Notes under the pieces: model-generated
Told to the model about the DNA's origin: nothing
The model's database searches: none
Seen by the model: the letters and a program-made list of their open reading frames with translations, nothing else
In this document: positions 43,730-61,467 of the stretch, piece after piece
How positions within the stretch are numbered: the first letter of the stretch is position 1
Layout of the letters: each line of letters starts with the position of its first letter
From: Candidatus Latescibacterota bacterium
Lineage (GTDB): Bacteria > Latescibacterota > UBA2968
Reading direction: 5' to 3'
NCBI GenBank assembly: GCA_965198115.1
Contig: OZ240241.1
Location: 1,376,001 to 1,440,000 of the forward strand
DNA: 64,000 bases
Position numbers and translations under genes: made by a program

Positions 43730-44296
43730 GGGTTCTCCCTTCACGCCGCAACCCGCATCGTGGCCGACGACCGATCCCGCCTCGAGCGCTTGCGCCGTTA
43801 CGTCATACGACCACCACTGGCCGCAGGCAAGCTCTGTGTTCTTGATAAAGAAACGTTGAGTTTCAGCCTCAAGACGCCTTGGTCCGATGGGACCACGCAC
43901 CTCGTGCTCTCACCGTTGGAACTGATCGAGAAGCTCGCCGCTCTTATTCCTCCGCCTCGTCTAAACCTTGTTCGTTATCTGGCGCCAAATGCCGCAAGTC
44001 GAGATCGCATCGTTCCAGGGCCACAGGAAGTGGTCGCCGAAGGCTGCGATCAGACCGAGCAACCCTCGTCACCCCAACCGGTCTATCGCCTCTCCTGGGC
44101 CCGCCTGCTTGCACGGGTTTTCCGCGTCGATGTGACGGAATGCCCTGCGTGTGGCGGGAAGATGAAAATCATCGCCGCATTGACCGAGCCCGTTGCCATT
44201 CGCACCTACCTCGACGGAGTCGGTCTGGCCTCGCGCCCGCCACCCATCGCCCCCGCACGTCTCCTCCCTCAAACTGAATTCGAATACGCGGATTAA
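43730..44296 (+). pseudogene. IS91/ISCR rolling-circle (Y2) transposase, C-terminal remnant
   Basis: LERLRRYVIRPP, LSPLELIEKLAALIPPPR..LVRY and WARLLARVF..D...CP.CGG. HGV is deleted. Confidence 0.85.
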
Positions 44297-44499
44297 CGCC
44301 ACCTTCCACTTGCGTGCGACCGCGGAGAAGTATGTCCTCGCAAGATGCACAGCGCACTTTCGACTCCGGCTAGCGGCACGTGGCCGCAACTCAACGAATT
44401 CCACGTCCAGCATACTGCAACCAGGCTTGCCGCAACCTTCGCCACGCCCGAACCTGTGCCATTACCCGAGCCAGGGAGTGAGAGAACACCCTTTATTCT

Positions 44500-45919
44500 G
44501 GCTATATCCGGATCTCTCAACGAGCTGAAGTGGGTGAAGGTGCCGTGGTTCCTGGCATGGGGGCGCGGTTAGCGTGTGCGGAACCTCTTCGGAATCTGCT
44601 CAGGGATGTTTATGTCTCCGACGGTAAGGAAGATCATATCGTTGAATGCGTCGAGTGTGCGGAATCCGCTGGCTCGGTTCTTGACGATTTGGACGATTCG
44701 GTTGAGGCCTTCGGCGATGGCGTTGGTAAGACGCGTGTTCACGAATGCGAGGACGCCGAAGAAGTGCTGTCGCAGGGTCCTGACGAACTTTCGCAGGGGT
44801 TCAAGTCGACTTCTGAGTGCGGACGTCGTCCAGCATTTCAGGAAGCGTTCGGCAGCCCAGGGCGCTTTGTATTCCCAGAACTGCTCGAACTCGTCCTTGA
44901 GTCTCCAGGCTCTATAGATTCGGTAGTTCGCCTTCTCCAGTGCTTTGAGTGTCCGAGTATCCCCTCTGGAGCGTGTCGCTGAGTGCCGGTAGAGGAGCCA
45001 TCGGAGGCCCTTCATGGCTTTGCGCTCATCCGGGGCAGCTTTACGCCACTGGTCCTTACGGACCTCGTCAACGGCGGCATTGAGAGCCTTGACGATGTGA
45101 AAGCGATCGAGGACCAGCTTGGCATTCGGACAGTGTTCCTGGATGGCTCCGATGTAAGCTTCGCTCATGTCGCAGCAGGCCCACTCGATCTTGGATCTCC
45201 GGTAGGGACTGAGAGCCTCTGTGAAGAACCGATCGATCGTTTTACGCGCCCTGCCGCGGCCAACCCACACCACGCAGGAGCGGTCCAGATCGTAAACGAG
45301 CGTGGCGTACCTGTGACGCTTGGCGTAGGAGATCTCGTCGATCCCGATGGTTTTGAGCCCTCGGATACGATGACCTTCACGAAGCCGCGTGATGGATCGG
45401 TGAAGGAGATCCGACAGCGTCGAGGCAGAGATGCGCAGTAACTCGGACGCCGCCTTCTGCGTCATGGTCTGGCAGTAGCGCAGCATGGCATACTCGAAGC
45501 GATACGTCACCCGAGAGAACCGCTCCGCCCACGGAATCTCCTCGACCACACGACCGTGGGTAGGACACCGAATCTCCCGAGGATGGTAGAGAAGCCAGAC
45601 CCTCCACCCGCACACCGGAATGTCACGCCACCGACGCGGATGGGGCATTGTGCGGACGATTTTACCTCGACGGCCGCACTCCGGACAACAACAACCATTC
45701 TTATGGGGCTTTACGGCGATGACGAAGCAGCTTCTCCCCTCAAACCACCAGCTGACAACACGGAACCCCTTGAATCTCAGCAGTTTCGATAGTAATCTGC
45801 TCCCGGTCATAGGTCGCACCCCCTTCGCTTTGATTGTCCTACACACACAACCAAGCGTAGGGAACGATCTATGACCTTGTCATTCTATAGTTTCACCGTT
45901 GAGAAACCCGGATAGAGCC
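44500..45919 (-). mobile_element. ISL3 copy 4, inserted in the oriIS-like end of the IS91/ISCR remnant
   Basis: IRs present, with 8-bp TSD tttattct. Confidence 0.95.
44569..45846 (-). CDS. ISL3 transposase
   Basis: Near-identical to the other copies. Confidence 0.93.
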   Translation of the reverse strand: MCRTIKAKGVRPMTGSRLLSKLLRFKGFRVVSWWFEGRSCFVIAVKPHKNGCCCPECGRRGKIVRTMPHPRRWRDIPVCGWRVWLLYHPREIRCPTHGRVVEEIPWAERFSRVTYRFEYAMLRYCQTMTQKAASELLRISASTLSDLLHRSITRLREGHRIRGLKTIGIDEISYAKRHRYATLVYDLDRSCVVWVGRGRARKTIDRFFTEALSPYRRSKIEWACCDMSEAYIGAIQEHCPNAKLVLDRFHIVKALNAAVDEVRKDQWRKAAPDERKAMKGLRWLLYRHSATRSRGDTRTLKALEKANYRIYRAWRLKDEFEQFWEYKAPWAAERFLKCWTTSALRSRLEPLRKFVRTLRQHFFGVLAFVNTRLTNAIAEGLNRIVQIVKNRASGFRTLDAFNDMIFLTVGDINIPEQIPKRFRTR

Positions 45920-45929
45920 TTTATTCTTC

Positions 45930-47580
45930 CTATCCGCTGCCCAACACCATCACCTCGCACTGGTGCACCGCTGGCCAGGGATCCGGTGTCTGCAGCCCAT
46001 CCAGCCCGAGTAACACCCGGTTCTCGCCGCGCTGGACAGGTGGATTCTCGGCGATGAGCCACGACTGGCCCCACTGGTTCTCGACGCTGGCCGCGCCGGA
46101 GAGTGAGACGTCCCGGCCGTTGACCTTGCACACGATGCGATCCATGTGCGATTCGCAATCGGTGAGACGCAGGCGCAGCTGCGTCCCCGCGATGCGACCA
46201 TCTGCCAGACCCGCTTCGATGTCGTCCTCGATGATGAGGCTCATCTCGTAGCCGGCGCCTCCAGTGCTGCGGGCAAACATGCTGAGCTCGCGCGGCACCT
46301 GCGGTCGGTGATCCTCCGGACGAGTGCGCCGGGTTGCCGAACAGGTGCGAATCCGAGACGCAGTAGCAGCGGTCCCGTTGTGCCAGCCTCTTCGGGTCGG
46401 TCAGATCGGTCAGGAGCTGCAGGTGGTCCTCGTTGTAGGTCTCCTCGTCTCTCGGTCCGGCGCGGTGGTGTTTGTAGTCGTAGTTGAACAGGTACACGCC
46501 GGCGGCGCCCTGCTCGTATCCGTTGAGGGCCACCGCCCGCAGCACCGCCGGCACAGCACTATCGTACCCCTCGTGAGGTGATGTCAGGTGCGTCGCGCCT
46601 TCGAAGCCCACGTAGATTAGCACGCCGGTGTCGCGAGCGCATTCTACGGCGTCGCCGATGTCGATGCGGGACGGGCAGTACGAAGCCGATGACAGCACGA
46701 ACAGATCGGCCACGGGCTCGCTGATCCACGTGCGCGCATCGATGCCGATTTCACGACCCTCGTCTAGGCAGGGTGGCACGCGGGTGATCAGCGCAATCTC
46801 CTTGCCCTTGTTATCGGATTGCTGGCGAACCGTTGCATGGGCTGCTCGCATGAAGTCGGTCAGCGTGTCGAGATTGTCGAGCAGGCGGCCAGGCTTGAAA
46901 TAGGGCGGGCCGCGCATCCAGTCGAGCTCCACGGCGTCGAAGTCGTAGCGCTCGAGGGTCTCATCGATCAAACCGAGAAAACGGTTGCGCACGTCTTCTT
47001 CTTCGTAGTTCCACTGCCAGCTGAAGTTCCAGCGATCGGCTCCGGGAGCAGGCGTCGGCAAGGGCGATCCGATCAGCAGATCGGGGCGGGTCTTCTTGAT
47101 GCGACTGCGCACCTGCCATTCTCGGGCCTCGTCGCACGTGTGGGCGTCGTTCATGCGGATCGATGCGATGGCGGTGATGCCGTGCTTGCGACACCCATCG
47201 ATGTAGATCTGCATGAGCTCGCGGCCGTCTTCTATCACCGCGTCCATGCAGTTGTAGAGTTGCTCGAGACGGCTCAACTCGAAACCACCAACAGTCATTT
47301 TGCGAATCGGGTTGCCGTCGGCGTCGAAATCCGGGTCGGGGTCCCAGATCTCGGTGTCGTCCCCCCACATGGCCGAGTGTGGGCTGCCGCGCCAGACCAC
47401 ATCGTCGTCGATGCCGATGAGACCGGCGAGCGCCTCCACCCCCGAGGGCACGAGCTGGTCCAGCTGATGCGTGACGTCGTCTGGATTGCGGTCCGGCAGA
47501 TAGAATAGCATCCAGTTGCCGTCGGTATTGAAAATCAGGCGCGACCACCGCTTGTTCCCCATCGACTTCTCCGTCATCAT
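45930..47580 (-). pseudogene. GHL10-like TIM-barrel putative glycoside hydrolase, frameshift near 46310
   Basis: LIFNTDG, ASIRMNDAH, YDFDAVELDWMR and GAAGVYLFNY. The C-terminus is in ORF 45930-46298. Confidence 0.72.
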
Positions 47581-47659
47581 GGCGCGGGTCATAGCCGCGC
47601 TAGCACTTTGCCTTTGGACATGGTTCGAGCCGACTACCTCCGGCACCGCAGAAATATGC

Positions 47660-47710
47660 GCCATTACCCGAGCCAGTGAGTGAGAGAACACCCTTATTCT
47701 TCCTATCCGC
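47660..47710 (+). repeat. Second copy of the oriIS-like end
   Basis: gccattacccgagccag.gagtgagagaacaccct.attcttcctatccgc matches 44458-44499 plus 45928-45937. Confidence 0.7.
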
Positions 47711-48277
47711 GCTGGCGAGCGCTCGAACTCGTGCAGGCCGACACCTATCCACAGCAATCCGATGCCGTTGTACAGCAGCCCATTCCCCCGCGCCCCTTCG
47801 ACCGCCTCCATGCATTCGGCGCAGAAGGTACCCAGCCAGTGCGTGAGGGCCGAAACTTGCCTGAGTAGCGGAAGATGTTTGTATCCGCTCACGCGTCGCA
47901 GGCGAGGTTCGATGTCGAGGAGTGCGGCAGCCACCCATCTGTGTCTCTGGGGAGAGTTGTTCCAGCGTCTGACCTTCCGAGTGAGGTCGCCGGTCATGCT
48001 GTTGAGGGTTCGATGCAGTTGGTGGTTCGGAAGCTTCGTTTCAGGAATGGGAGCATACCCAGCCGGTGGAGGGTCAGGGTTTCCTCCAGGCCTTCCTCGA
48101 GGCTCGTTACGGCAGACTGATTCATCAGCTTCAGTTCGGGTTTAAGTGATTCGAGTGCGGCCTTTGCCTCCTCGTAGGTGTCGCAGTCATAGGCTTTCTG
48201 AAGCTTCCGTCGAACTCTTGGACGTTCCCTCTCCGGGAGATAGCTGACGACATTCTCGCGCTTGTGCCACTGACAGC

Positions 48278-49651
48278 GAGCTATAATCAAAAGGTGTGGA
48301 AAAAGAGAAAGGGCGACCCTACCCTTCCCGTGAGATAGTTGATTCACACAAAACCGGGTGAGAGGCCCGGTTGGGAAGGAGGATCGCCGTGAAGGAACAT
48401 ACGCATAGAGCCCCATTGAAGTCCATGCCGACGTGGGAGACGGTTGACGATTGGATCCGTGAAGAGATCCAGGGCCGGTTCCAGTCCATTCTGGAGGAGG
48501 AGGCGACCGCGTTCTTGGGCCGGTCGTGGTATGAGCGCCGAGCCGAGGTCGATAGCTCCACGGGCTACAGGAACGGCTACGGCAAGCCCCGGCGTCTCTC
48601 GACGAGCTGCGGAACGATCAAGGTCCGGCGTCCCCGGGTTCGTGGTCTGGAAGAGCGGTTTGAAAGCCGCATCCTCCCCCTGTTCGCCCGGAGAACCAGG
48701 GCCATTGGAGATCTGCTTCCCGACCTTTATCTCCACGGTCTCTCCCAGGGCGACTTCGAGTTGTCTTTGCGTGCGCTGCTCGGTGATGGCGCGCCGCTTT
48801 CGCCGACCTCGATCGCTCGTCTTCGAGGGAAGTGGGAGGTCGACTTCCAGGACTGGAAAGAAAGGCGTCTGGATAATCGCGAACTGGTCTACGCCTGGGC
48901 TGATGGCATCTACGTCAAAGCCGGGCTCGAGCGCGAGAAGGCGTGTCTGCTGGTCGTGATCGGCGCGATGAGCGACGGCAGCAAGGAGATCCTGGCGATA
49001 GAACCCGGTTATCGAGAGTCTACAGAATCCTGGCTCACGGTGCTCCGGGATCTCCGGGATCGCGGGCTCGAACATCCTGTCCTGATCGCCGCGGACGGGA
49101 ATATGGGCATCTGGGCGGCCGTTGATCAGGTCTGGCCAGAGAGCCGGCAACAACGGTGCTGGAACCACAAGATCCTCAACGTGCTCGACAAGGTCGCCAA
49201 GCGTGCACAGGCTGAAGCCCGCGCACTGCTCGTCCAGATCCCCTATGCCGGCACGAAAAAGGAGGCCGAGAAGCTCCGGAAACGCTTTGCCGCACGGTAT
49301 CGCTCACAGTTCCCTGCCGCCGTGGAGACGCTCGAAAGAGACTGGGATCGGATGGTCACGTTCTACGACTTCCCGAAGGAACACTGGAAACACCTGAGAA
49401 CCACGAACGTCGTCGAGAGCCCCTTTGCTTCCGTTCGGCTTCGCACAAACGCCGCCAGGCGATTCAAGAAAGTCAGGAACGCCACGACTCTCATCTGGCG
49501 TACGCTCAAGGTCGCAGAGAGCCGATTCAGGAAACTCACCGCGCCACACTTGCTACAACAAGTCTACGATCAGAAACACTCAACCGGACCGCAGGTCGAA
49601 GCCGGGAAGATGGCCGCCTGATTTCTTTTACACACCTATCGACCTGAACTC
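48278..49651 (+). mobile_element. IS256-A copy 5
   Basis: IRs present, with 8-bp TSD ctgacagc inside IS256-C. Confidence 0.95.
48371..49621 (+). CDS. IS256 transposase
   Basis: Near-identical to the other copies. Confidence 0.95.
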   Translation: MGRRIAVKEHTHRAPLKSMPTWETVDDWIREEIQGRFQSILEEEATAFLGRSWYERRAEVDSSTGYRNGYGKPRRLSTSCGTIKVRRPRVRGLEERFESRILPLFARRTRAIGDLLPDLYLHGLSQGDFELSLRALLGDGAPLSPTSIARLRGKWEVDFQDWKERRLDNRELVYAWADGIYVKAGLEREKACLLVVIGAMSDGSKEILAIEPGYRESTESWLTVLRDLRDRGLEHPVLIAADGNMGIWAAVDQVWPESRQQRCWNHKILNVLDKVAKRAQAEARALLVQIPYAGTKKEAEKLRKRFAARYRSQFPAAVETLERDWDRMVTFYDFPKEHWKHLRTTNVVESPFASVRLRTNAARRFKKVRNATTLIWRTLKVAESRFRKLTAPHLLQQVYDQKHSTGPQVEAGKMAA

Positions 49652-50119
49652 CTGACAGCGATGCACGCGCACATACCCTTTGAGGGCTTTGGTGACAGCA
49701 CTGCGGAGCCCCTTTGAGCCGTCAAGCACAACGAGGAGGCCTTGATCGTAGCACAGGCCTCTCCGGATGAGGTCCTGGATCAGCTGGCGGCAGATCCGTT
49801 CGTTCTCCGTCGCCGATTCGACGAAGCCCAGGGGGATCTTCTGGCCGTCCATCGTGACCCCCAGAGCGATCACGATCTCTTCGTCGGCAAAGCTCTTTCC
49901 GTCAATGAACAGGGTCACGAAGCCGTAGTCGTCGAGGGGACGCTCCTGGAACTGCTTCAGCTTCTTCGCGGTGGCTTTGATGAACCGCCGCGAGACGGAG
50001 GACGCTGAGATACCAAACGCTTCTGGAACCGATTCGGCACAGGCCTTGTAGTTGCGGCACGAGATCCCCTTGAGAACACGAAGCAACAGCCCCTCGTCCG
50101 TCTTCTTGGGCGTCTGTAG

Positions 50120-50913
50120 TGTGACGCCTTGCGATAATTCTCCGCCCGGCTTAAGCTATTCGCAGAATAGGCAGAATCGTTTCAATACGGTTAACAGTGG
50201 AGACCGTTCCCTAATGAGTTGAGGGTCACCTAAGATCTGGCGGCCATGCGACATAGTGCCATAGGAGTACTTACAAGGCGCAACGGCCAAAAGCGGTTGT
50301 CGGACCTACGCCTGATGTCCCTTTCTTTACGCGAACGCGTTTGGCACATTCCGGGGGATCGGGACGCGAAACGCTCTCGACCTCCGACGGAGTCCACGAC
50401 CGGCAGCACCGCCAGGGAGACGGCCGATTTTCTACCCCGCTTCGCCATTTTCGGGAAGCACCTTCAAAGCCGCCTTGTCGACAGACGCAAGCTCTTGTTT
50501 TTGCACTGGTTTAAGTGTTTCCGACACCTGAAAAAACCCCCTTTCGTCGACAACGGCCGCGATGCGCCCTCCGGAACGAAAATTAGGACGGATTAGTAAA
50601 AGAAACGGTCTCAACCGGTGTCCAAAAGAGAGCTGACCGTTTCCACCCCCCCTACCCCCCCGGTGCGGGCCTCGGGCCAGCGACGCGCCCAGGGCCAACA
50701 CCGCGCACCCCCCTATGCCCGCTGGGACCTGGCCTGACCACGTCTTGAGCCTAATCGGTCCTATTTCTCGCGGCGTGTGGGAAAATGAAAAAGGGCGCGG
50801 TCTACATCGGAACGCCCAGAGAGTTCATCCCCCTTAGCCCCGGGTCGTCAGTTCTTGGTGCGTGAGAATGCGAATAGCGTAACTTGGGAGGGAACCTATC
50901 GTAAGCCGTAACA
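50120..50913 (+). repeat. 794-bp MITE-like unit, copy 1
   Basis: About 45-bp imperfect terminal IRs. Apparently identical to 60674-61467. Confidence 0.9.
50230..50448 (-). pseudogene. Short ORF with terminase-small-subunit-like N-terminus
   Basis: MAKRGRKSAVSLAVLP, downstream of a G-rich cos-like motif. Confidence 0.35.
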
Positions 50914-51051
50914 ACTATGTCGCATGGCCGCCAGATCTTAGGTGACCCTCAACTCATTAGGGAACGGTCTCCACTGTTAACCGTATTGAAACGATTCTGC
51001 CTATTCTGCGAATAGCTTAAGCCGGGCGGAGAATTATCGCAAGGCGTCACA
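50914..51051 (-). repeat. Inverted copy of the first 138 bp of the 794-bp unit
   Basis: Exact reverse complement of 50120-50257. Confidence 0.92.
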
Positions 51052-51404
51052 GCACTCCTACCCTTACGGGTGGAGGATTCCAGCCGATCAATCTCGGTGA
51101 ATAGGAATGCACACTAGGAAGATACGGTTTCCGCCGGGATGGCGGCAAGGTGGAATGGGGAAATCTGGTTGTTGTATTGAAGGTTGGTTGGCAGAACCGC
51201 TCAGAGACCAGATGGGGAGAATTCCTAACTGTTCGTCGTCACCCGCCTATCAGATGGTTGTGCGAACGATTCGGGCGAGAGAACCGTGGGAAATGCCCGA
51301 ATAAGCGTGCAGAGGTAGAACGGATTCTGGAATGAGGTCCCTTCCAGATCGCTCCCCGGTTTTTATACCGTGTGTTTCTGTGACTGTCTCCCGAAAGCGC
51401 AGAC

Positions 51405-54400
51405 TTAAGCCGGAAGCCCCACAAATAGCCGACTCCACACATCCTCCAGCGAATCCACTTCGCCTGTTTCCGCAGCCCGTGCAAAAACAACTCCTGGGCG
51501 TCTCACATTGTGGGCTCTCGCAAGCACTCCATAGCCTTTAATCTCTGCCTGCAGCTCTTTGTCGAACTCCTCCATCTCGTGTACGATTCCCGCCAGGCCG
51601 CGCCGGGCACCCGGAACGCGCCCGAAGACCTCGGCAGGAGTCAGCCCTTCGGCCCACCCGTGTGGAATCGGTACCAGATTCATCTCCATATCTCGTACCA
51701 CACCGGCTCCCCCGAGATACTGTTTCAACTGACGCTCATTCCCTCGAGCACCGGACTTGAACATCAGGTTTATTGGCCCCCATCCATCGCCGTCGAATAC
51801 GTCCGACCTCACCACATAGCCTTCGATCTCCTGGGCATACGCCTGCCACTCATCCGCATCGTTTCCTTTAGGTTTTGGGGGCAGTTCCAGATCCGATCCT
51901 ACAAACGGTCCCATAGACAAGCCCAGCGTCTTTGCCACATCGTAGCCTCGATGCATCAGCTTCTGCGATACATCCAACGCAGCCTCGGGTCCTTCCCTGT
52001 CAAGAACTTCTGCCATCGCCTCAATCACGGTGGAATGAGTAACCATACCGTGCGTGGTGGCAATCGAGGCCCCGGCTAGCTCCTCGATCTCTCTCAGCCC
52101 CTCCGGTGATCTGCTGAGTTCCGCAAGCCCCATCATAGCGTCCATCCTGGGAGGTAGCGCCTGAATCAGTCCGGGATCTCGCCGGAGGTGGCCTGCCACG
52201 CTCAGGAGATCGGCCGCCTCCTTTTGTCCTGACTCGGTCAGGGGCAGGTAGACAGCTGCCTGATCTCCATCGAAATCCGCATTCATCATCTCGCAGACAA
52301 GCGGATGTACACGCAGCACATTTTCCGGAATGCGTCTCGGCCGGAAAACGACGAACGACATCGGGGCAACGGCAGGGGCCCGATAGAGAATCAACCACGA
52401 TGACGCCATCGCCTTGTCCAGCGCTTCGGCGCCCCTTTGGCTACGCTCTTGCACAGGCCTGGGATCTCCCAGCTCTCGAACGGCCAGAGGCCCGAACAGC
52501 GACCAAGCTATTTCTTCTGCCACGCCCAGCTCATCAATGCCCAGCTCAGGCCCGGGGGCAATCACCGTCCGTCCACTGAACAGAACGCGTGACTGGAACG
52601 CCATTTTGTCCGGGTGTACCAGCGCATCCAGATATTCTGCAACCCGGGCCCCCAGGTGCTCCGCAGCTTTGCGCGTAAGCGCCTCAGGCATCCCATCCTT
52701 CAGCATGCGCGACAACCGATCGTTCGATGCGGCCAGAGCAGCATATTCCACCAGATCCTCTGCAACCCCCACCACATCACAGGATCTGCTCGCATTCCAC
52801 GGATGCGGGACAGGCCTGATAAGCCCCAAGACATCGCCATGCGGCTCGACGAAGTCAAAGGTCAGCCTGGAGTCTCCGAGCGCGGCTCTGACTCCGCCCG
52901 CCCTCAACCCCTCCTGTATGCGCAGGAAACCGGCGCGAGGAGGTGCAGCCTGCGAGATGCTCCCTGAAGCCACGCGATCCTCCAGGGAGTCCGATCCCTC
53001 CTGTGCCGCCGCACACGTGTGGCTCTGCTCGCGGATGGTCTCGTATGCTCCAACGTCCGCCAGAACCCGATACTCCGTCTCCCCCATGGCCTGCCCACGA
53101 TAATCTCCGGGAGCCGTCCCCGAGTGGATCTTGTCCCTCACCAAGTGAGAAGTGACTCCCCAGTAGACCCAGCCAGCCGTACTTCGACGCTTCAGGGGAT
53201 GACCCTTCACCGTCAGCGCCTCCATACCATCTTCATCCAGCCCGGCATTCTGCAGCTGCTCGCGAAGCGCTTCTGCCTTGGGCGCTGAAAACGGAGGAAC
53301 AATGCACGGCGAACCGGTCGCCTTCGCGATCCGTCCCATTACTGCTTCCCGAACAGCGCCGTAAGCCATTCGGGACGGGAGGCTACATACGCTGTAGATG
53401 AGCTCAACGGGCGTCCCATCGGCGAGGGTTGGCATCTCCGCATCGGGCAGAATACGGCCGACCACACCCTTGTGTCCGTGGCGATTCGACAGCCTGTCTC
53501 CCACAGCAAGAATGTTAGGTGTCCGCATGCGGTCCGCACACGACTCGCTCACCACGATCGAATCCTCGAACGCATCCCCATCCCACGAGATGAACGCCGT
53601 CAACAGATTGTGTCCCATCCAGAAGAAGGGTGTGTCCGGCTCGTGTCCTGTTTGCACCAAAGCCGGTTCGGGCGCCATTCCCTCCGCTTCGCTCATCATC
53701 TGTTGATAGGCGTGGAAGTCACCGGCTTCCTGGATCGGCATCTCTGGATCAGGCTTTCCAATCCATTGGCGCATCATATTCACGCCCATAAGGATCCGGT
53801 TCGAATCGCTGTGCTCGAGGAAGGGAATCGATGCAGCGCCCATCCCCAGCGTGCCTTCGGGACTGTCGTCCACGATCACGATCCGGTCGTCTTGGATGGC
53901 GGCGCCCCGCGCAATCTCCAGAATCAACCCGATATTCGGTCCTTCCGGAGTGCAGAACGGGCAGACCCGTCCCTGCTGACTGGCGACTACTACCGGAATA
54001 CCCGTCAATCTGAACGGGGGCGCCGCTTCCCGTCCGATATGTTCAAGGGATAGGCGTCTCAAGTGCGTGTAAACGTCCAGCCAGTTCGTCACCTGCAGGT
54101 ACTGTGAACTACCCTGGTGTTGTCGGTATCGGCCGTTCAGATAGGTGTGCCACTGCCCGACGTGGAACTCCTGAAACCAATCGTCGATCGGCAGCCACGA
54201 TCTGGTCAGATCAGCATCCCAGGACAGGCTATGCGGGGCGTCTCCCAGACGTTCGGCTATGAAATCCCGCAGCTGATCTCCCACGCAGCTGATCTCCGCA
54301 TCAACCAGGTCCGGGGAGGATGCCAGCGGCACGACCACCCGGTAGCTCCCTTCTACTTTGAACACACCGGCATCGTCCGGTTTCGGCAGATTGTCGAACG

Positions 54401-54581
54401 AGAGCAGCACATCGCCGTCCGCGCCCTGAACGATCACTTCCACGCTACACGTGTATGGTCCTGTCGACTCCGTACGGTAGTCCACTAACGGCACCCGCTC
54501 TCTCAACAGATCGGGAAGGAATTCGTTGACGAATCGATCCCACGACTCCTTGTGCCAAGGGGCAGCATCATTCAAAGACAT
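51405..54581 (-). CDS. Miniaturised single-chain RNA polymerase beta-beta' fusion (RpoB/RpoC-derived, 1058 aa)
   Basis: beta motifs: CPFCTPEGPNIGL, IPFLEH.D.NR.LMG.NM.RQ, FEDSI, GDRLSNRHGHKGVV, PSRM, HLV.DK, GQ.MGE.E. beta' motifs: FSGRTVI, RAP, HPLVC..NADFDGDQ, SGARG, GARRGL. The ATG overlaps the sigma stop (TGATG). Confidence 0.92.
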   Translation of the reverse strand: MSLNDAAPWHKESWDRFVNEFLPDLLRERVPLVDYRTESTGPYTCSVEVIVQGADGDVLLSFDNLPKPDDAGVFKVEGSYRVVVPLASSPDLVDAEISCVGDQLRDFIAERLGDAPHSLSWDADLTRSWLPIDDWFQEFHVGQWHTYLNGRYRQHQGSSQYLQVTNWLDVYTHLRRLSLEHIGREAAPPFRLTGIPVVVASQQGRVCPFCTPEGPNIGLILEIARGAAIQDDRIVIVDDSPEGTLGMGAASIPFLEHSDSNRILMGVNMMRQWIGKPDPEMPIQEAGDFHAYQQMMSEAEGMAPEPALVQTGHEPDTPFFWMGHNLLTAFISWDGDAFEDSIVVSESCADRMRTPNILAVGDRLSNRHGHKGVVGRILPDAEMPTLADGTPVELIYSVCSLPSRMAYGAVREAVMGRIAKATGSPCIVPPFSAPKAEALREQLQNAGLDEDGMEALTVKGHPLKRRSTAGWVYWGVTSHLVRDKIHSGTAPGDYRGQAMGETEYRVLADVGAYETIREQSHTCAAAQEGSDSLEDRVASGSISQAAPPRAGFLRIQEGLRAGGVRAALGDSRLTFDFVEPHGDVLGLIRPVPHPWNASRSCDVVGVAEDLVEYAALAASNDRLSRMLKDGMPEALTRKAAEHLGARVAEYLDALVHPDKMAFQSRVLFSGRTVIAPGPELGIDELGVAEEIAWSLFGPLAVRELGDPRPVQERSQRGAEALDKAMASSWLILYRAPAVAPMSFVVFRPRRIPENVLRVHPLVCEMMNADFDGDQAAVYLPLTESGQKEAADLLSVAGHLRRDPGLIQALPPRMDAMMGLAELSRSPEGLREIEELAGASIATTHGMVTHSTVIEAMAEVLDREGPEAALDVSQKLMHRGYDVAKTLGLSMGPFVGSDLELPPKPKGNDADEWQAYAQEIEGYVVRSDVFDGDGWGPINLMFKSGARGNERQLKQYLGGAGVVRDMEMNLVPIPHGWAEGLTPAEVFGRVPGARRGLAGIVHEMEEFDKELQAEIKGYGVLARAHNVRRPGVVFARAAETGEVDSLEDVWSRLFVGLPA

Positions 54582-55186
54582 CAGTCTCCTCCCTCTCCCT
54601 CGAATCTCCGCCATTGTCGGGCAAGCTCCTTCCGGGCGTGATGAAGCCTCGACTTCACAGTGCCTTCCGGCACACCCAGCCGTTCGGCCACCTCGCGCAT
54701 CTCCATCTCTGCATCGTGCACCATCCGGACGACCTCGCGTTTCTCCTCCGGAAGCTCATCGATACGTCGCTGCAGCCACTGGTGTCGCTCACGCTGTTCG
54801 ACCCGAGCATCTGGGCCAAGTGAAGCGCTGTCAACGAGCCATCCAGGAGTGAGCGTATCGTCGTCATCCTGCACGCCATCGAGCCAGAGAACCGGCTCGG
54901 TCGGTGCCTCTCGTCGTCGACGGACCCACCGGAGGTGATTGTAGGCCAGGTGTGTGCCGATTCGAAGCAGCCACCCCTGCAGCGTCCCGCGGCATTCCCA
55001 CTGATCGGCCCGGCTCCAGAGACGGATAAACACCTCCTGCACCAGGTCTTCAGCCGAGGCAGAATCGCGGACAATTCTGTTAACGCAGGCCTTTATCTGT
55101 CCCTCAAACCTGTCGAAAACGACCTCGAAAGCCTGTTCGTCCCGGTTCAGGATTCTGTTCACAAGCTCTCGATCCGTCTCTGCCAT
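54581..55186 (-). CDS. ECF (sigma70 group 4) sigma factor
   Basis: Region 2 AEDLVQEVFIRLW...WLLRI..HL.YNHLR, and region 4 LPEEKREV...EVAERLGVPEGTVKSRLHHAR. Confidence 0.93.
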   Translation of the reverse strand: MAETDRELVNRILNRDEQAFEVVFDRFEGQIKACVNRIVRDSASAEDLVQEVFIRLWSRADQWECRGTLQGWLLRIGTHLAYNHLRWVRRRREAPTEPVLWLDGVQDDDDTLTPGWLVDSASLGPDARVEQRERHQWLQRRIDELPEEKREVVRMVHDAEMEMREVAERLGVPEGTVKSRLHHARKELARQWRRFEGEGGD

Positions 55187-55204
55187 TCGGGATCCCCACC
55201 TTTA

Positions 55205-55231
55205 AGGACACCACAAATTGAACCGAGTTCA
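55205..55231 (-). promoter_or_regulatory. Candidate autoregulatory ECF promoter
   Basis: Minus strand TGAACT-N16-GTCCT about 20 nt upstream of the sigma ATG. The -35 lies in the palindrome TGAAC-tcg-GTTCA. Confidence 0.45.
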
Positions 55232-55688
55232 TTCGATTATCGACATCTTCTACAGACTGCGCAGATGGCACAGACATTGTACTCCAGCTGTACCATCCCT
55301 CGCAGCTCGTTGCGGATCCAAGAAGAATGGGCACGTCCTCTACCTTCTAAGGACATGCCCAAATCTGAAAACAGGTTTCAGGTCAGTTGCGCCCCGTTCC
55401 AATGGCATTCCGGGGATACCGAGGGGCTAAGGGTTCAGCGTTCTACCGATGCGTGCCACTTAAAGTATTTCGCTCTGCCCTTGTTCCAGGCGGTCACTTT
55501 CCTACCTTGCAGGATGTCAAGCTTCCATCGACCGACTCTCGGTCCGCCTCACACACAACAAGCCTCATACAACAACTAGGCACACTCGCCGGTTTACTTG
55601 ACGTAACGTGCTCCTTTTCGGTAGCCTGTTCCTTACGTGCGTGGCGGTCACCAGCTTTATGGCCCTATGTCCATGCGCAACCCGTCGC

Positions 55689-56218
55689 GGTCAAGTCCCA
55701 TAGTCAGTTGAAAACTCATCGGGCCCCGTAGTTTGGTCAGGCTCTCTTTTGAGCATTCTGTTCGTTGTCGAGATTCAGATCTTTGTTCAGTGCTTGCCTG
55801 AGTAGGGGAAGATGTTTGTATCCGCTCACGCGTCGCAGGCGAGGTTCGATGTCGAGGAGTGCGGCAGCCACCCATCTGTGTCTCTGGGGAGAGTTGTTCC
55901 AGCGTCTGACCTTCCGAGTGAGCTCGCCGGTCATGCTGTTGAGGGCTTCGATGCAGTTGGTGGTTCGGAAGCTTCGTTTCAGGAATGGGAGCATACCCAG
56001 CCGGTGGAGGGTCAGGGTTTCCTCCAGGCCTCCTCGTTGTGCTTGACGGCTCAAAGGGACTCCGCAGTGCTGTCACCAAAGCCCTCAAAGGGTATGTGCG
56101 CGTGCATCGCTGCCAGTGGCACAAGCGCGAGAATGTCGTCAGCTATCTCCCGGAGAGGGAACGTCCAAGACTCTCTTCGTCGGCAAAGCTCTTTCCGTCA
56201 ATGAAGAGGGTCACGAAG
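55689..56218 (-). mobile_element. Scrambled IS256-C remnant (3' end plus an inverted and a deleted internal piece)
   Basis: 55689-56031 matches the IS 3' end, about 56030-56170 is an inverted internal piece, and about 56172-56218 is another internal piece. Confidence 0.85.
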
Positions 56219-57111
56219 TGTTCGCGACGTCTGTTGTGTCGAAAGACGAACTCATCCAAGTAGACTTGGAGCTGTTCACGACTGACGCCGTGATGCGTGC
56301 CAACCAGCCATTGCTGAAGGTTTCCGATCGCTCGGTCCACCAGAGGCACCACGGATTCCGCTCCCTTGCGAAGTTCCGCCCGATGCGGCTGGGAACGGGC
56401 AACGTGGTAGCCTTTCGCGTTGAGTTTCTCAAAACTCTTGAGTCCGTCAGTGTGGATCGTCGAGCCGGGCGTGACGTTCTGTTTGGCGAAGTCAACGAAC
56501 GTTGTCGACTTGAAATCTGGAATCACGGTCATGCGGAGACGCCCGGATCTGTTTGATCCGCGTTTCTCTACAGCAACCAGTACGAGCGCCGCACGGCGGC
56601 CCTTGAGCTGTCGGCTTCCGCGGAGTCCGGGTTGAGGCCCGCCGATCCAGGTGTCATCGATCTCGACCTCTCCGTGGAGGGGTTCACGCGCCTCATTGAC
56701 CATTGCTCGTCGAAGCTTGTGAAGCATCATCCAGGCGGTTTCGTAGCGCTTGAGCCCCAGTTGACGCTGGATGAGAAGCGCCGAGATCCCACGTTTGTCG
56801 GTGGTCATCAGGTAGGCAGCCCAGAACCAAGCCGTCAGCGGCGTTTTCGTCCTGTGAAGAACCGTCCCGGACGTCAGCGACACTTGATGCCTGCAGGAAA
56901 ACACACTCCCACTGTCGGCGTTTGGCGACCGTGTAAGCTCGATCGTGACCACAGCGTGGGCAGACGAAACCGTCAGGCCATCGACACATCGCCAGGTAGT
57001 CTTGACACGCCTCTTCGGTAGCGAACTGGCGCTGAAACTCGCTCAGGTTTTTCGGGAACGGAAGTCTTCGCACGCCCGAACACTACATGATAGTGCCCTC
57101 CTGAGTCAACC
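56219..57111 (-). mobile_element. IS1595-family element, frameshifted and 3'-truncated
   Basis: RWPDGFVCPRCG, SGTVLHRTK, EIDD, IHTDG, GTHHGVS and YLDEFVFRHNRR. Confidence 0.88.
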
Positions 57112-57129
57112 AGGATCGGATTCCGCTCA

Positions 57130-57600
57130 AACAGACTGTTGCGGAGTTCTTCAACGGTGGTCTTGAAGTAACGCACCCAGAGCAGGTTCTCCTTGAGAAT
57201 GCGGATGAAACGCTCGGCGCAACCCCTTCCTTCCGGGCACGCACAAAGCTTGGCGAGGCCTCGATACCCTGGGAGGCGATCTCGAAAGGCGTCAGAGACG
57301 TATTGGGACCCGTTGTCGTGACAGACGCGGGCGAGGCCTTGAGCGATGTCCTTTACCAAGGCGCCGAAGTGACGGCGGACGCCCTGTCGTGCAGTGATCG
57401 ACCGCCACGAACACACTTGCCGTGCCTTCCCCGGTCGTGATCGTCTGAGTCAGATCCGTGCCCACATCGCGTCAGGGATCGGAGTCGTGATCGTGCCGTC
57501 GTGGGCTGAGGACCGCGGCGTGACCCTGTCCGATTGGGTGCCTGTGAACCGTTCTCACGCATCAGACTGTCCTCCTACAGTTCCAGCACACATACAACCA
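57130..57600 (-). pseudogene. Heavily degraded IS3/IS481-type integrase remnant
   Basis: HDNGSQYVS and AERFIRILKENLLW. Confidence 0.6.
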
Positions 57601-60673: not shown

Positions 60674-61467
60674 TGTGACGCCTTGCGATAATTCTCCGCC
60701 CGGCTTAAGCTATTCGCAGAATAGGCAGAATCGTTTCAATACGGTTAACAGTGGAGACCGTTCCCTAATGAGTTGAGGGTCACCTAAGATCTGGCGGCCA
60801 TGCGACATAGTGCCATAGGAGTACTTACAAGGCGCAACGGCCAAAAGCGGTTGTCGGACCTACGCCTGATGTCCCTTTCTTTACGCGAACGCGTTTGGCA
60901 CATTCCGGGGGATCGGGACGCGAAACGCTCTCGACCTCCGACGGAGTCCACGACCGGCAGCACCGCCAGGGAGACGGCCGATTTTCTACCCCGCTTCGCC
61001 ATTTTCGGGAAGCACCTTCAAAGCCGCCTTGTCGACAGACGCAAGCTCTTGTTTTTGCACTGGTTTAAGTGTTTCCGACACCTGAAAAAACCCCCTTTCG
61101 TCGACAACGGCCGCGATGCGCCCTCCGGAACGAAAATTAGGACGGATTAGTAAAAGAAACGGTCTCAACCGGTGTCCAAAAGAGAGCTGACCGTTTCCAC
61201 CCCCCCTACCCCCCCGGTGCGGGCCTCGGGCCAGCGACGCGCCCAGGGCCAACACCGCGCACCCCCCTATGCCCGCTGGGACCTGGCCTGACCACGTCTT
61301 GAGCCTAATCGGTCCTATTTCTCGCGGCGTGTGGGAAAATGAAAAAGGGCGCGGTCTACATCGGAACGCCCAGAGAGTTCATCCCCCTTAGCCCCGGGTC
61401 GTCAGTTCTTGGTGCGTGAGAATGCGAATAGCGTAACTTGGGAGGGAACCTATCGTAAGCCGTAACA
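60674..61467 (+). repeat. 794-bp MITE-like unit, copy 2
   Basis: Direct repeat of 50120-50913 at an offset of 10554 bp. Confidence 0.9.

Follow-up and report, generated by a model that had tools for sequence, protein, structure and literature searches.

The window analysed here comprises 64,000 nucleotides of the genome of a Candidatus Latescibacterota bacterium (assembly GCA_965198115.1, contig OZ240241.1, positions 1,376,001 to 1,440,000), and coordinates refer to the window unless otherwise stated. Its minus strand carries a two-gene cassette composed of a sigma factor of the extracytoplasmic function (ECF) type and a miniature, single-chain homologue of RpoB and RpoC, the subunits beta and beta' of bacterial RNA polymerase (RNAP). 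On translation, the sigma factor's open reading frame (ORF; 54581-55186) yields 201 amino acids (aa), and that of the polymerase homologue, hereafter the mini-polymerase (51405-54581), yields 1058 aa without a stop. The two genes meet in TGATG, where the stop codon TGA of the first (54583-54581) and the start codon ATG of the second (54581-54579) share one base. Pfam domains in the mini-polymerase follow the order Rpb2_3 (residues 160-227), Rpb2_6 (352-487) and Rpb1_2 (727-795), the last two over cut-off. The catalytic motif NADFDGD occupies residues 767-773 (52263-52283), and the beta/beta' junction falls at about residues 572-582 (52838-52866). An earlier, sequence-only reading of this DNA had described an intact ORF with RpoB and then RpoC blocks, the overlapping stop and start, the position of the motif, and a fusion point at about 52850-52880. 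The first three were re-derived unchanged, and the computed fusion point is close.

The same reading had set the cassette apart from the housekeeping rpoBC locus, and the host genome bears this out: its normal rpoB (a 1281-aa ORF) and rpoC (1364 aa) sit at genome position 1.96 Mb, amid ribosomal-protein-like ORFs. The NCBIfam matches of the 1058-aa ORF all remain far under cut-off, with 169.5 bits against 801 for rpoB and 112 against 963.5 for RpoC. There is no alpha gene within the cassette, and the host genome has one rpoA-like ORF. As to a chimeric assembly, two runs of a single sample each contain a 4691-nt contig that covers the locus (51025-55715) with zero differing letters; the sample may be the source sample itself, hence this support is not independent. 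The host genome holds a second cassette (L001:7482-11741; G000:C1:3367482-3371740), with a mini-polymerase of 1054 aa that is 39% identical, an ECF sigma factor that is 53% identical, a standard 26-nt promoter, 233 nt separating the two genes, and D in place of the motif's N.

The homologue search found 594 proteins among the 7994 candidates scored, of which the best 120 are full length, with 1002-1067 aa and 45-90% identity. The few named sources are Poribacteria, Hydrogenedentes, Chloroflexi, Gemmatimonadota and Armatimonadetes, and the labels are hypothetical or domain-only. With an exhaustive search included, 195 stored proteins cover the whole length of the family profile (917-1101 aa, median 1030); the sequence-only reading had proposed looking for homologues of about 1000-1100 aa that match both RpoB and RpoC, and these are such proteins. 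The C-terminal 51 residues are matched in 67 of the 153 genomes of the host phylum (64 at E <1e-8), a presence that differs by genus: 21/21 in genus g4, 20/28 in g27 and 0/15 in g7. In the genome sets of other phyla, the match occurs in 2/301 (Anaerolineaceae-centred), 3/301 (Planctomycetota-centred) and 1/126 (Hydrogenedentota-centred). No full-length mini-polymerase was found in IMG/VR, none of the 35 matching records of a phage collection (50,697 records) reaches 80% coverage, none of the 67 matches in a plasmid collection counts as a member, and PADLOC gave no match for the mini-enzyme.

Over the 210 pairs formed by 21 g4 genes, simple pairwise counting among related sequences gave a median dN/dS of 0.173 (mini-polymerase gene) and 0.125 (ECF gene). 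In 12 g4 genomes, the mini-polymerase gene presents a dN/dS of 0.176 against 0.062 for rpoC, with a dS of 0.27 against 0.33 and a rho of 0.83. The mini-polymerase genes are under purifying selection, as the sequence-only reading had argued in preference to decay, and inheritance of the cassette within g4 looks vertical. The window copy is off-consensus at 4 of 185 conserved columns, the family median being 5. Cassettes with large internal deletions were also seen (L097, L101/L105/L116, L117/L119/L126, L141, L232, L262, L284, L285 and L299), which keep the promoter or ECF start together with the C-terminal end while much of the polymerase or the ECF gene is gone; several of these deletions look independent, and the pattern is biased because the searches selected for the C-terminus. 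Three proteins are longer single-chain RpoB-RpoC fusions: P0258 (1948 aa), P0261 (2309 aa) and P0264 (2522 aa). P0258 and P0261 are gapped against the canonical profiles and may represent intermediates or further pruned lineages.

The anatomy of the mini-polymerase was mapped by profile alignments against 59 canonical RpoB/RpoC pairs, host pair included, taken from an alignment scan of genome contigs that yielded canonical rpoBC loci alone. The map is collinear with RpoB and then RpoC. In the beta-derived half (residues 1-572; 52866-54581), which structure and profile alignments place in register with RpoB throughout, residues 9-87 correspond to the beta N-terminus. The beta lobe is gone (deletion site 54309-54320): 19 residues lie between the flanking motifs in 183/195 members, compared with 254 in host RpoB. 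After the rifampicin-pocket, fork and hybrid-binding blocks, which are present, the beta flap is likewise gone (53508-53543), with 23 residues between motifs in 186/195 members and 269 in host RpoB. The beta barrel and C-terminal beta blocks then extend to about residue 572.

The beta' half opens at residues 582-596 with a strand that in RpoC comes after the Zn domain. The clamp helices (residues 613-652; 52626-52745), matched by profiles and contact residues to the sigma2 docking site of beta', are present, and the parts missing on either side of them are what we take to be the lid and the rudder. Beyond them come switch 2, the catalytic barrel, a shortened funnel, and the bridge helix (residues 981-1011; 51549-51641), which has a profile match of 94% and a predicted helix at 982-1010. 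Lost along with the lobe and flap are the Zn domain, rudder, jaw and trigger loop. A short linker (51501-51548) replaces the trigger loop, the jaw and about 500 beta' residues in all, as judged by profile and by the distance from residue 993 to 1029, which is a spacing of 39 residues in 144/195 members and of 535 in host RpoC. A trigger-loop profile has no match in the family (z of 3.5, against 3.6 for shuffled sequences and 13 in RpoC), and the segment PGVVFARAA was rejected as a degenerate trigger loop. The C-terminal block (51417-51500), presumably region H of beta', is assigned to the last conserved beta' region on the basis of sequence profiles: its best ungapped RpoC site is that region in 57 of 59 sequences, with a median z of 5.2 against 3.9 for shuffled sequences, and hhalign alone gives a weak match (P=0.068). 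The claim that the deletions fall between conserved blocks thus holds only in part: two of the lost elements, the flap and the trigger loop, are conserved throughout the cellular polymerases.

The AlphaFold2 model of the whole chain is confident, with a pLDDT of 91.5 and a pTM of 0.91. In its beta half, 528 residues superpose on residues 22-1165 of 8i23_C at 2.7 A with 30% identity. Foldseek listed 50 matches for the whole chain, all of them cellular or plastid polymerase chains, and the matches listed for the beta' half are beta' chains only. Both double-psi beta-barrels are present, with the DxDGD metal motif and the beta-side Asp/Lys/Lys, the signature of the two-barrel superfamily.

The active site is kept far more strictly than the rest of the chain, whose median column is conserved at only 60%. 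The three NADFDGD aspartates are retained in 186, 193 and 192 of the 195 members. Under E. coli residue labels that we take to apply, the positions of beta D814, K1065, K1073 and R1106 are kept in 187, 188, 190 and 193 members, and those of beta R678, Q688 and H1237 and beta' R425 in 184, 193, 186 and 181, the beta positions being contacts to metal, triphosphate and RNA; the positions of R731 (155/195) and R798 (100/195) are less conserved. The rifampicin pocket varies, with D at the presumed D516 position in 71/195 members and S at the presumed S531 position in 21/195. The R731-equivalent is T in 27 members, which, together with a change of the motif's N to D, hints at sublineages with altered nucleotide-sugar selection.

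RNAP of T. aquaticus with its trigger loop deleted still incorporates nucleotides, 10^4 times more slowly and with most discrimination lost (PMC2874521). YonO, in which no trigger-loop homology is detectable, is nevertheless active and as efficient as cellular RNAP (PMC5467207). RNA synthesis by the mini-enzyme therefore seems plausible from its residues, because YonO is efficient without such homology, though loss of the loop slows the T. aquaticus enzyme.

With regard to origin, a FastTree tree was built from 26 of 46 diverse members and the 59 canonical pairs over 624 columns. All members group in one clade, borne on a long stem (1.28), and the family's identity to every canonical pair tested is 33-36%, about 34% over the 624 columns. 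The tree places the family next to Patescibacteria with a support of 0.85, a placement rejected as uninformative in view of the stem length and the near-equal identity to all pairs. Structural identity is 30-31% to bacterial beta and 22-25% to archaeal and eukaryotic chains. As judged from these comparisons, the mini-polymerase is a descendant of bacterial beta/beta'; the tree is unrooted and points to no donor lineage.

The upstream gene is a short ECF sigma factor with the domains Sigma70_r2 and r4_2, namely sigma2 (residues 24-89) and sigma4 (136-188) with no sigma3 and no C-terminal extension, which is the composition of group 4. Of 113 loci examined, 63 have a full-length mini-polymerase gene. 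In all 63, a related ECF gene lies on the same strand no more than 2.5 kb upstream, and in 51 it lies within 500 nt, counts that overstate independence in that 21 of the loci come from one genus. The sequence-only reading had proposed a test for conserved ECF adjacency, and these counts agree with it. In the host class, an ECF orthologue occurs in 58 of 125 genomes, 56 of which also have the C-terminus of the mini-polymerase gene; in the remaining two, a contig end truncates the locus. Among the loci compared, no neighbour other than the ECF gene is common to the lineages, and no anti-sigma factor was seen. Together with the 195 full-length members, the dN/dS values and the promoter-like motif described below, the adjacency upholds the proposal of a conserved two-gene accessory module. 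In some g4 loci (L241, L242, L243, L245, L251, L254, L258 and L261), an ORF of about 597 aa that by eye resembles an ABC transporter lies between the two genes.

The ECF linker between sigma2 and sigma4 carries a family-specific motif, PGWLVD, after an acidic stretch (residues 114-119; 54830-54847). PGW is found in 42/47 family ECFs and, among the 21 sigma-like ORFs of the host genome, only in the two cassette ECFs. The core-facing residues D47, E51, L54 and W57 are each at least 90% conserved. On the side of the polymerase, eight clamp-helix residues touch sigma2 in the case of sigma32 (PMC10216364), and four of these contacts are kept: R278 (R/K in 176 of 195), R281 (R in 131), L282 (M/L/I in 168) and I291 (L in 188). 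The exposed tip of the clamp helices is also conserved (P632 in 190, L635 in 188 and R622 in 163 of 195). A correlation between ECF and mini-enzyme distances (rho 0.77) was set aside as evidence of binding, since co-inheritance explains it.

A motif, TGAACC-N14-GGTGTC, stands upstream of the ECF gene in 54/58 loci, with an overall length of 26 nt in all 54. When lengths of 25-27 nt were allowed in 20 further loci, 15 matched, each with a length of 26 nt; 13 of these are among the 15 loci that bear an ECF gene. Rigid spacers are required by ECFs (PMC6411747). In the window, the predicted ECF promoter reads TGAACT-N13-GGTGTC (55207-55231, from the sequence and the family motif), and the -35 element also forms one half of a short inverted repeat (TGAAC-TCG-GTTCA). 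The window copy may be weakly expressed or differently regulated, as its promoter sequence suggests. A weight-matrix scan of the host genome found no surplus of sites: 15 scored above 14, compared with 13 in a simulated genome. A pattern search of 31 genomes gave 80 matches against 25 for the reversed pattern, about 25 of the 80 being the cassettes' own. A wider regulon was sought and not found: of 15 other sites inspected, 12 lie inside long ORFs, one is located ahead of the remnant of a cassette (L299), and the remaining two are at most partly intergenic and non-recurrent. As far as the two-element motif indicates, the regulon would be the cassette itself. Terminator-like hairpins follow the mini-polymerase gene in 28/77 loci, compared with 23/229 intragenic controls, and the sigma-70 promoter and terminator scan gave counts at chance level. 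One such hairpin (55328-55361, minus strand) lies just upstream of the window's promoter and could insulate the cassette, the scan count again being at chance level.

The reading that we prefer, at a probability of about 0.5, is that the ECF factor and the pruned polymerase form a module in which host core with the ECF transcribes the cassette, while the mini-enzyme holds the ECF and synthesises RNA at a slow rate. This reading combines the two functions that the sequence-only reading had offered as alternatives, a private polymerase and an RNAP-derived sigma regulator. Ordinary host core carrying the ECF would read the cassette from TGAACC-N14-GGTGTC, a step that falls to the host core since the flap tip that places sigma4 on the -35 element is found there alone. 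The co-translated mini-enzyme would then capture the ECF through its clamp helices, standing in for an anti-sigma factor and closing a negative feedback loop. A core mimic is proposed as the brake because an autoregulated ECF needs one and the mimic is the sole co-encoded protein, and it is proposed still to do chemistry because the catalytic residues are strictly conserved. The complex of mini-enzyme and ECF, its sigma4 unanchored, would start at sites set mainly by the -10 element, which would be invisible to a two-element motif scan. Its transcripts would be slow, error-prone or short, because the trigger loop, lobe and jaw are gone.

Several observations weigh against this proposal. Four of the eight clamp-helix contacts are changed (the positions of R275, L285, E295 and M298), so that sigma2 docking may be weak or lost, and the conserved core-binding face of the ECF is equally explained by binding to the host core. 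In the sigmaH holoenzyme, sigma4 grips the flap-tip helix and a helix at the C-terminus of beta, and the spacer is contacted by the Zn domain and the zipper (PMC6411747); neither the two sigma4 anchors nor these spacer contacts have a counterpart in the mini-enzyme. An enzyme slowed 10^4-fold may be without useful product, and the N of the catalytic motif (position 767) is D in 43/195 members. The window copy itself has a 13-nt spacer, one base under the family form, and was missed by the scan. Finally, large internal parts of the genes have been lost in several relatives, and the ECF adjacency counts lean on a single genus for 21 of 63 loci.

An alternative that we consider unlikely is that the mini-polymerase and its ECF read both promoter elements themselves and processively transcribe the 3.8-kb operon, as an orthogonal, self-sustaining loop that serves as a selfish cassette or as a back-up when the host enzyme is inhibited. 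The efficiency of YonO, a chain of similar size in which trigger-loop homology is not detected (PMC5467207), speaks for such a private holoenzyme, and the PGW linker motif (42/47) could stand in for the flap as an anchor. Further support comes from the overall motif length, fixed at 26 nt in all 54 and all 15 matches, from the variable rifampicin-pocket positions, and from the patchiness of the cassette, present in about 1% of genomes in other phyla and in two copies in the host genome. However, the chain has no sigma4 anchor, lobe, jaw or trigger loop, and the plain form of this reading is weakened by the absence of the trigger loop and the two sigma4 anchors. No mobility genes or cargo are conserved at the loci, the inheritance within g4 looks vertical (rho 0.83), and a loop with itself as only product brings no evident benefit.

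Less probable still is a core mimic that does not polymerise, an anti-sigma sensor or decoy that would hold the ECF until a ligand of the Mg, NTP or hybrid pocket frees it, with a nucleotide, an RNA-DNA hybrid, an antibiotic or a phage RNAP inhibitor as candidates. Such a protein would sit where an anti-sigma factor does in an autoregulated, translationally coupled ECF operon in which no other anti-sigma is seen, and the trigger loop is gone. Yet the near-invariant metal and triphosphate ligands, in a family at about 40-50% identity, exceed what sigma binding demands, and the freed sigma factor would turn on the cassette alone.

A further step down in likelihood is an effector that is independent of sigma, the ECF acting via host core while the mini-enzyme on its own would be a promoter-independent nucleotidyl transferase, primase-like or working on single-stranded DNA or RNA templates. 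The single-chain two-barrel enzymes of selfish elements have been suggested to act as primases (PMC3417536), and here half of the sigma2 contacts, all sigma4 anchors and the clamps on the downstream duplex are lost. However, the clamp-helix tip is conserved (P632, L635 and R622, as above), the ECF would be left without a visible regulator, and the stop-start coupling suggests a stoichiometric pair. A decaying rpoBC duplicate or an assembly chimera, which the many insertion sequences of the window and the broken copies in some relatives might bring to mind, is refuted for the family as a whole by 195 full-length members with the same deletions, a dN/dS of 0.17-0.18, carriage by 21/21 g4 genomes, a single contig spanning the locus, and a window copy off-consensus at 4 of 185 conserved positions against a median of 5.

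Several transposase genes and fragments flank the cassette (43760-50086 and 55700-57400), the window is full of insertion sequences, and an identical 116-aa ORF occurs twice (50246-50596 and 60800-61150). The sequencing depth of the flanks reaches up to about 150 times that of the cassette. At 16 loci (L238 and L240-L258), a 128-145-aa ORF and a long membrane-protein ORF, BlaI/BlaR-like by eye, lie downstream, usually beyond a terminator-like hairpin that follows the mini-polymerase gene.

Textbook bacteria have one RNA polymerase, diversified only via sigma factors. A selected, widespread core paralogue with its own sigma factor would be an exception to this, comparable to the specialised polymerases of eukaryotes. 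We put forward, tentatively and at somewhat less than even odds, that many uncultured bacteria have a second sigma-dependent RNA polymerase, a chain of about 1000 residues derived from their own beta/beta' with a private ECF and promoter. If so, a polymerase working without alpha, flap, lobe and trigger loop would be the smallest to use a sigma factor, and a natural minimal model of cellular RNAP. An active enzyme would reveal what cellular RNAP is capable of once the trigger loop, flap and lobe, and perhaps alpha, are removed, and by what means a sigma factor functions when sigma4 has no anchor; an inactive one would be a new kind of anti-sigma or decoy made from a polymerase core. As a 3.8-kb two-gene unit with a defined promoter, the cassette should be easy to express and could serve as an orthogonal transcription part.

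In comparison with known systems, a miniature paralogue of the bacterial polymerase core coupled to a sigma factor is apparently undescribed in print. A full-text literature search, whose coverage excludes most subscription papers and one relevant review (Iyer and Aravind 2012), found no published description of the family. With bacterial RpoB and RpoC working with an ECF, the cassette shares collinear blocks, two barrels, NADFDGD, the bridge helix, the clamp helices and, at the level of the sequence motif, an autoregulatory-type ECF promoter. It differs in that about 1030 aa in one chain replace a median of 2541 aa of beta plus beta', which makes it about 40% of their size, without lobe, flap, Zn domain, rudder, jaw or trigger loop, and in being additional to the housekeeping genes; its beta' stretch after the catalytic barrel, presumably the alpha-contacting part, is also cut short. 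The full-length RpoBC fusions (PRK09603 and PRK14844), which are the housekeeping enzymes of their hosts, have the same beta-beta' order in one chain and give the top NCBIfam matches. Their models, however, span 2839-2890 positions, and the mini-enzyme scores 172 bits against a cut-off of 5372 and coexists with separate host rpoB and rpoC.

Compared by description, the closest architectural parallel is Orf6 of the yeast linear plasmid pGKL2, a 982-aa Rpb2::Rpb1 fusion from which roughly half of the sequence is missing, without trigger, lid and rudder homology and also without switch 5 (PMC2919709). Orf6 is derived from eukaryotes, borne on a plasmid and without a sigma factor, whereas the mini-polymerase is chromosomal, closer to bacterial chains, and retains the C-terminal beta' block and 624 confidently aligned columns against about 250 homologous residues in Orf6. 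YonO-type enzymes (of the SPbeta prophage, with P23-45 gp64/gp96 and crAss-like relatives) are also single chains of about 100 kDa, YonO lacking trigger-loop homology, and YonO-like genes occur on some bacterial chromosomes (PMC5467207). They share few catalytic residues with cellular RNAP, while the mini family is about 34% identical over 624 columns, keeps the sigma-docking helices and is not found in the phage collections. As for the promoter, the -35 sequence TGAACC is found in other ECF groups too, and a text search of the main text and part of the supplement of the 2021 ECF re-classification found neither the -10 sequence GGTGTC nor an Rpb context (PMC7826278). Bicistrons of an ECF and an anti-sigma factor present the same layout, with the ECF first, a coupled second gene and a conserved upstream promoter; in the present cassette, however, the second gene is a polymerase homologue rather than a known anti-sigma.

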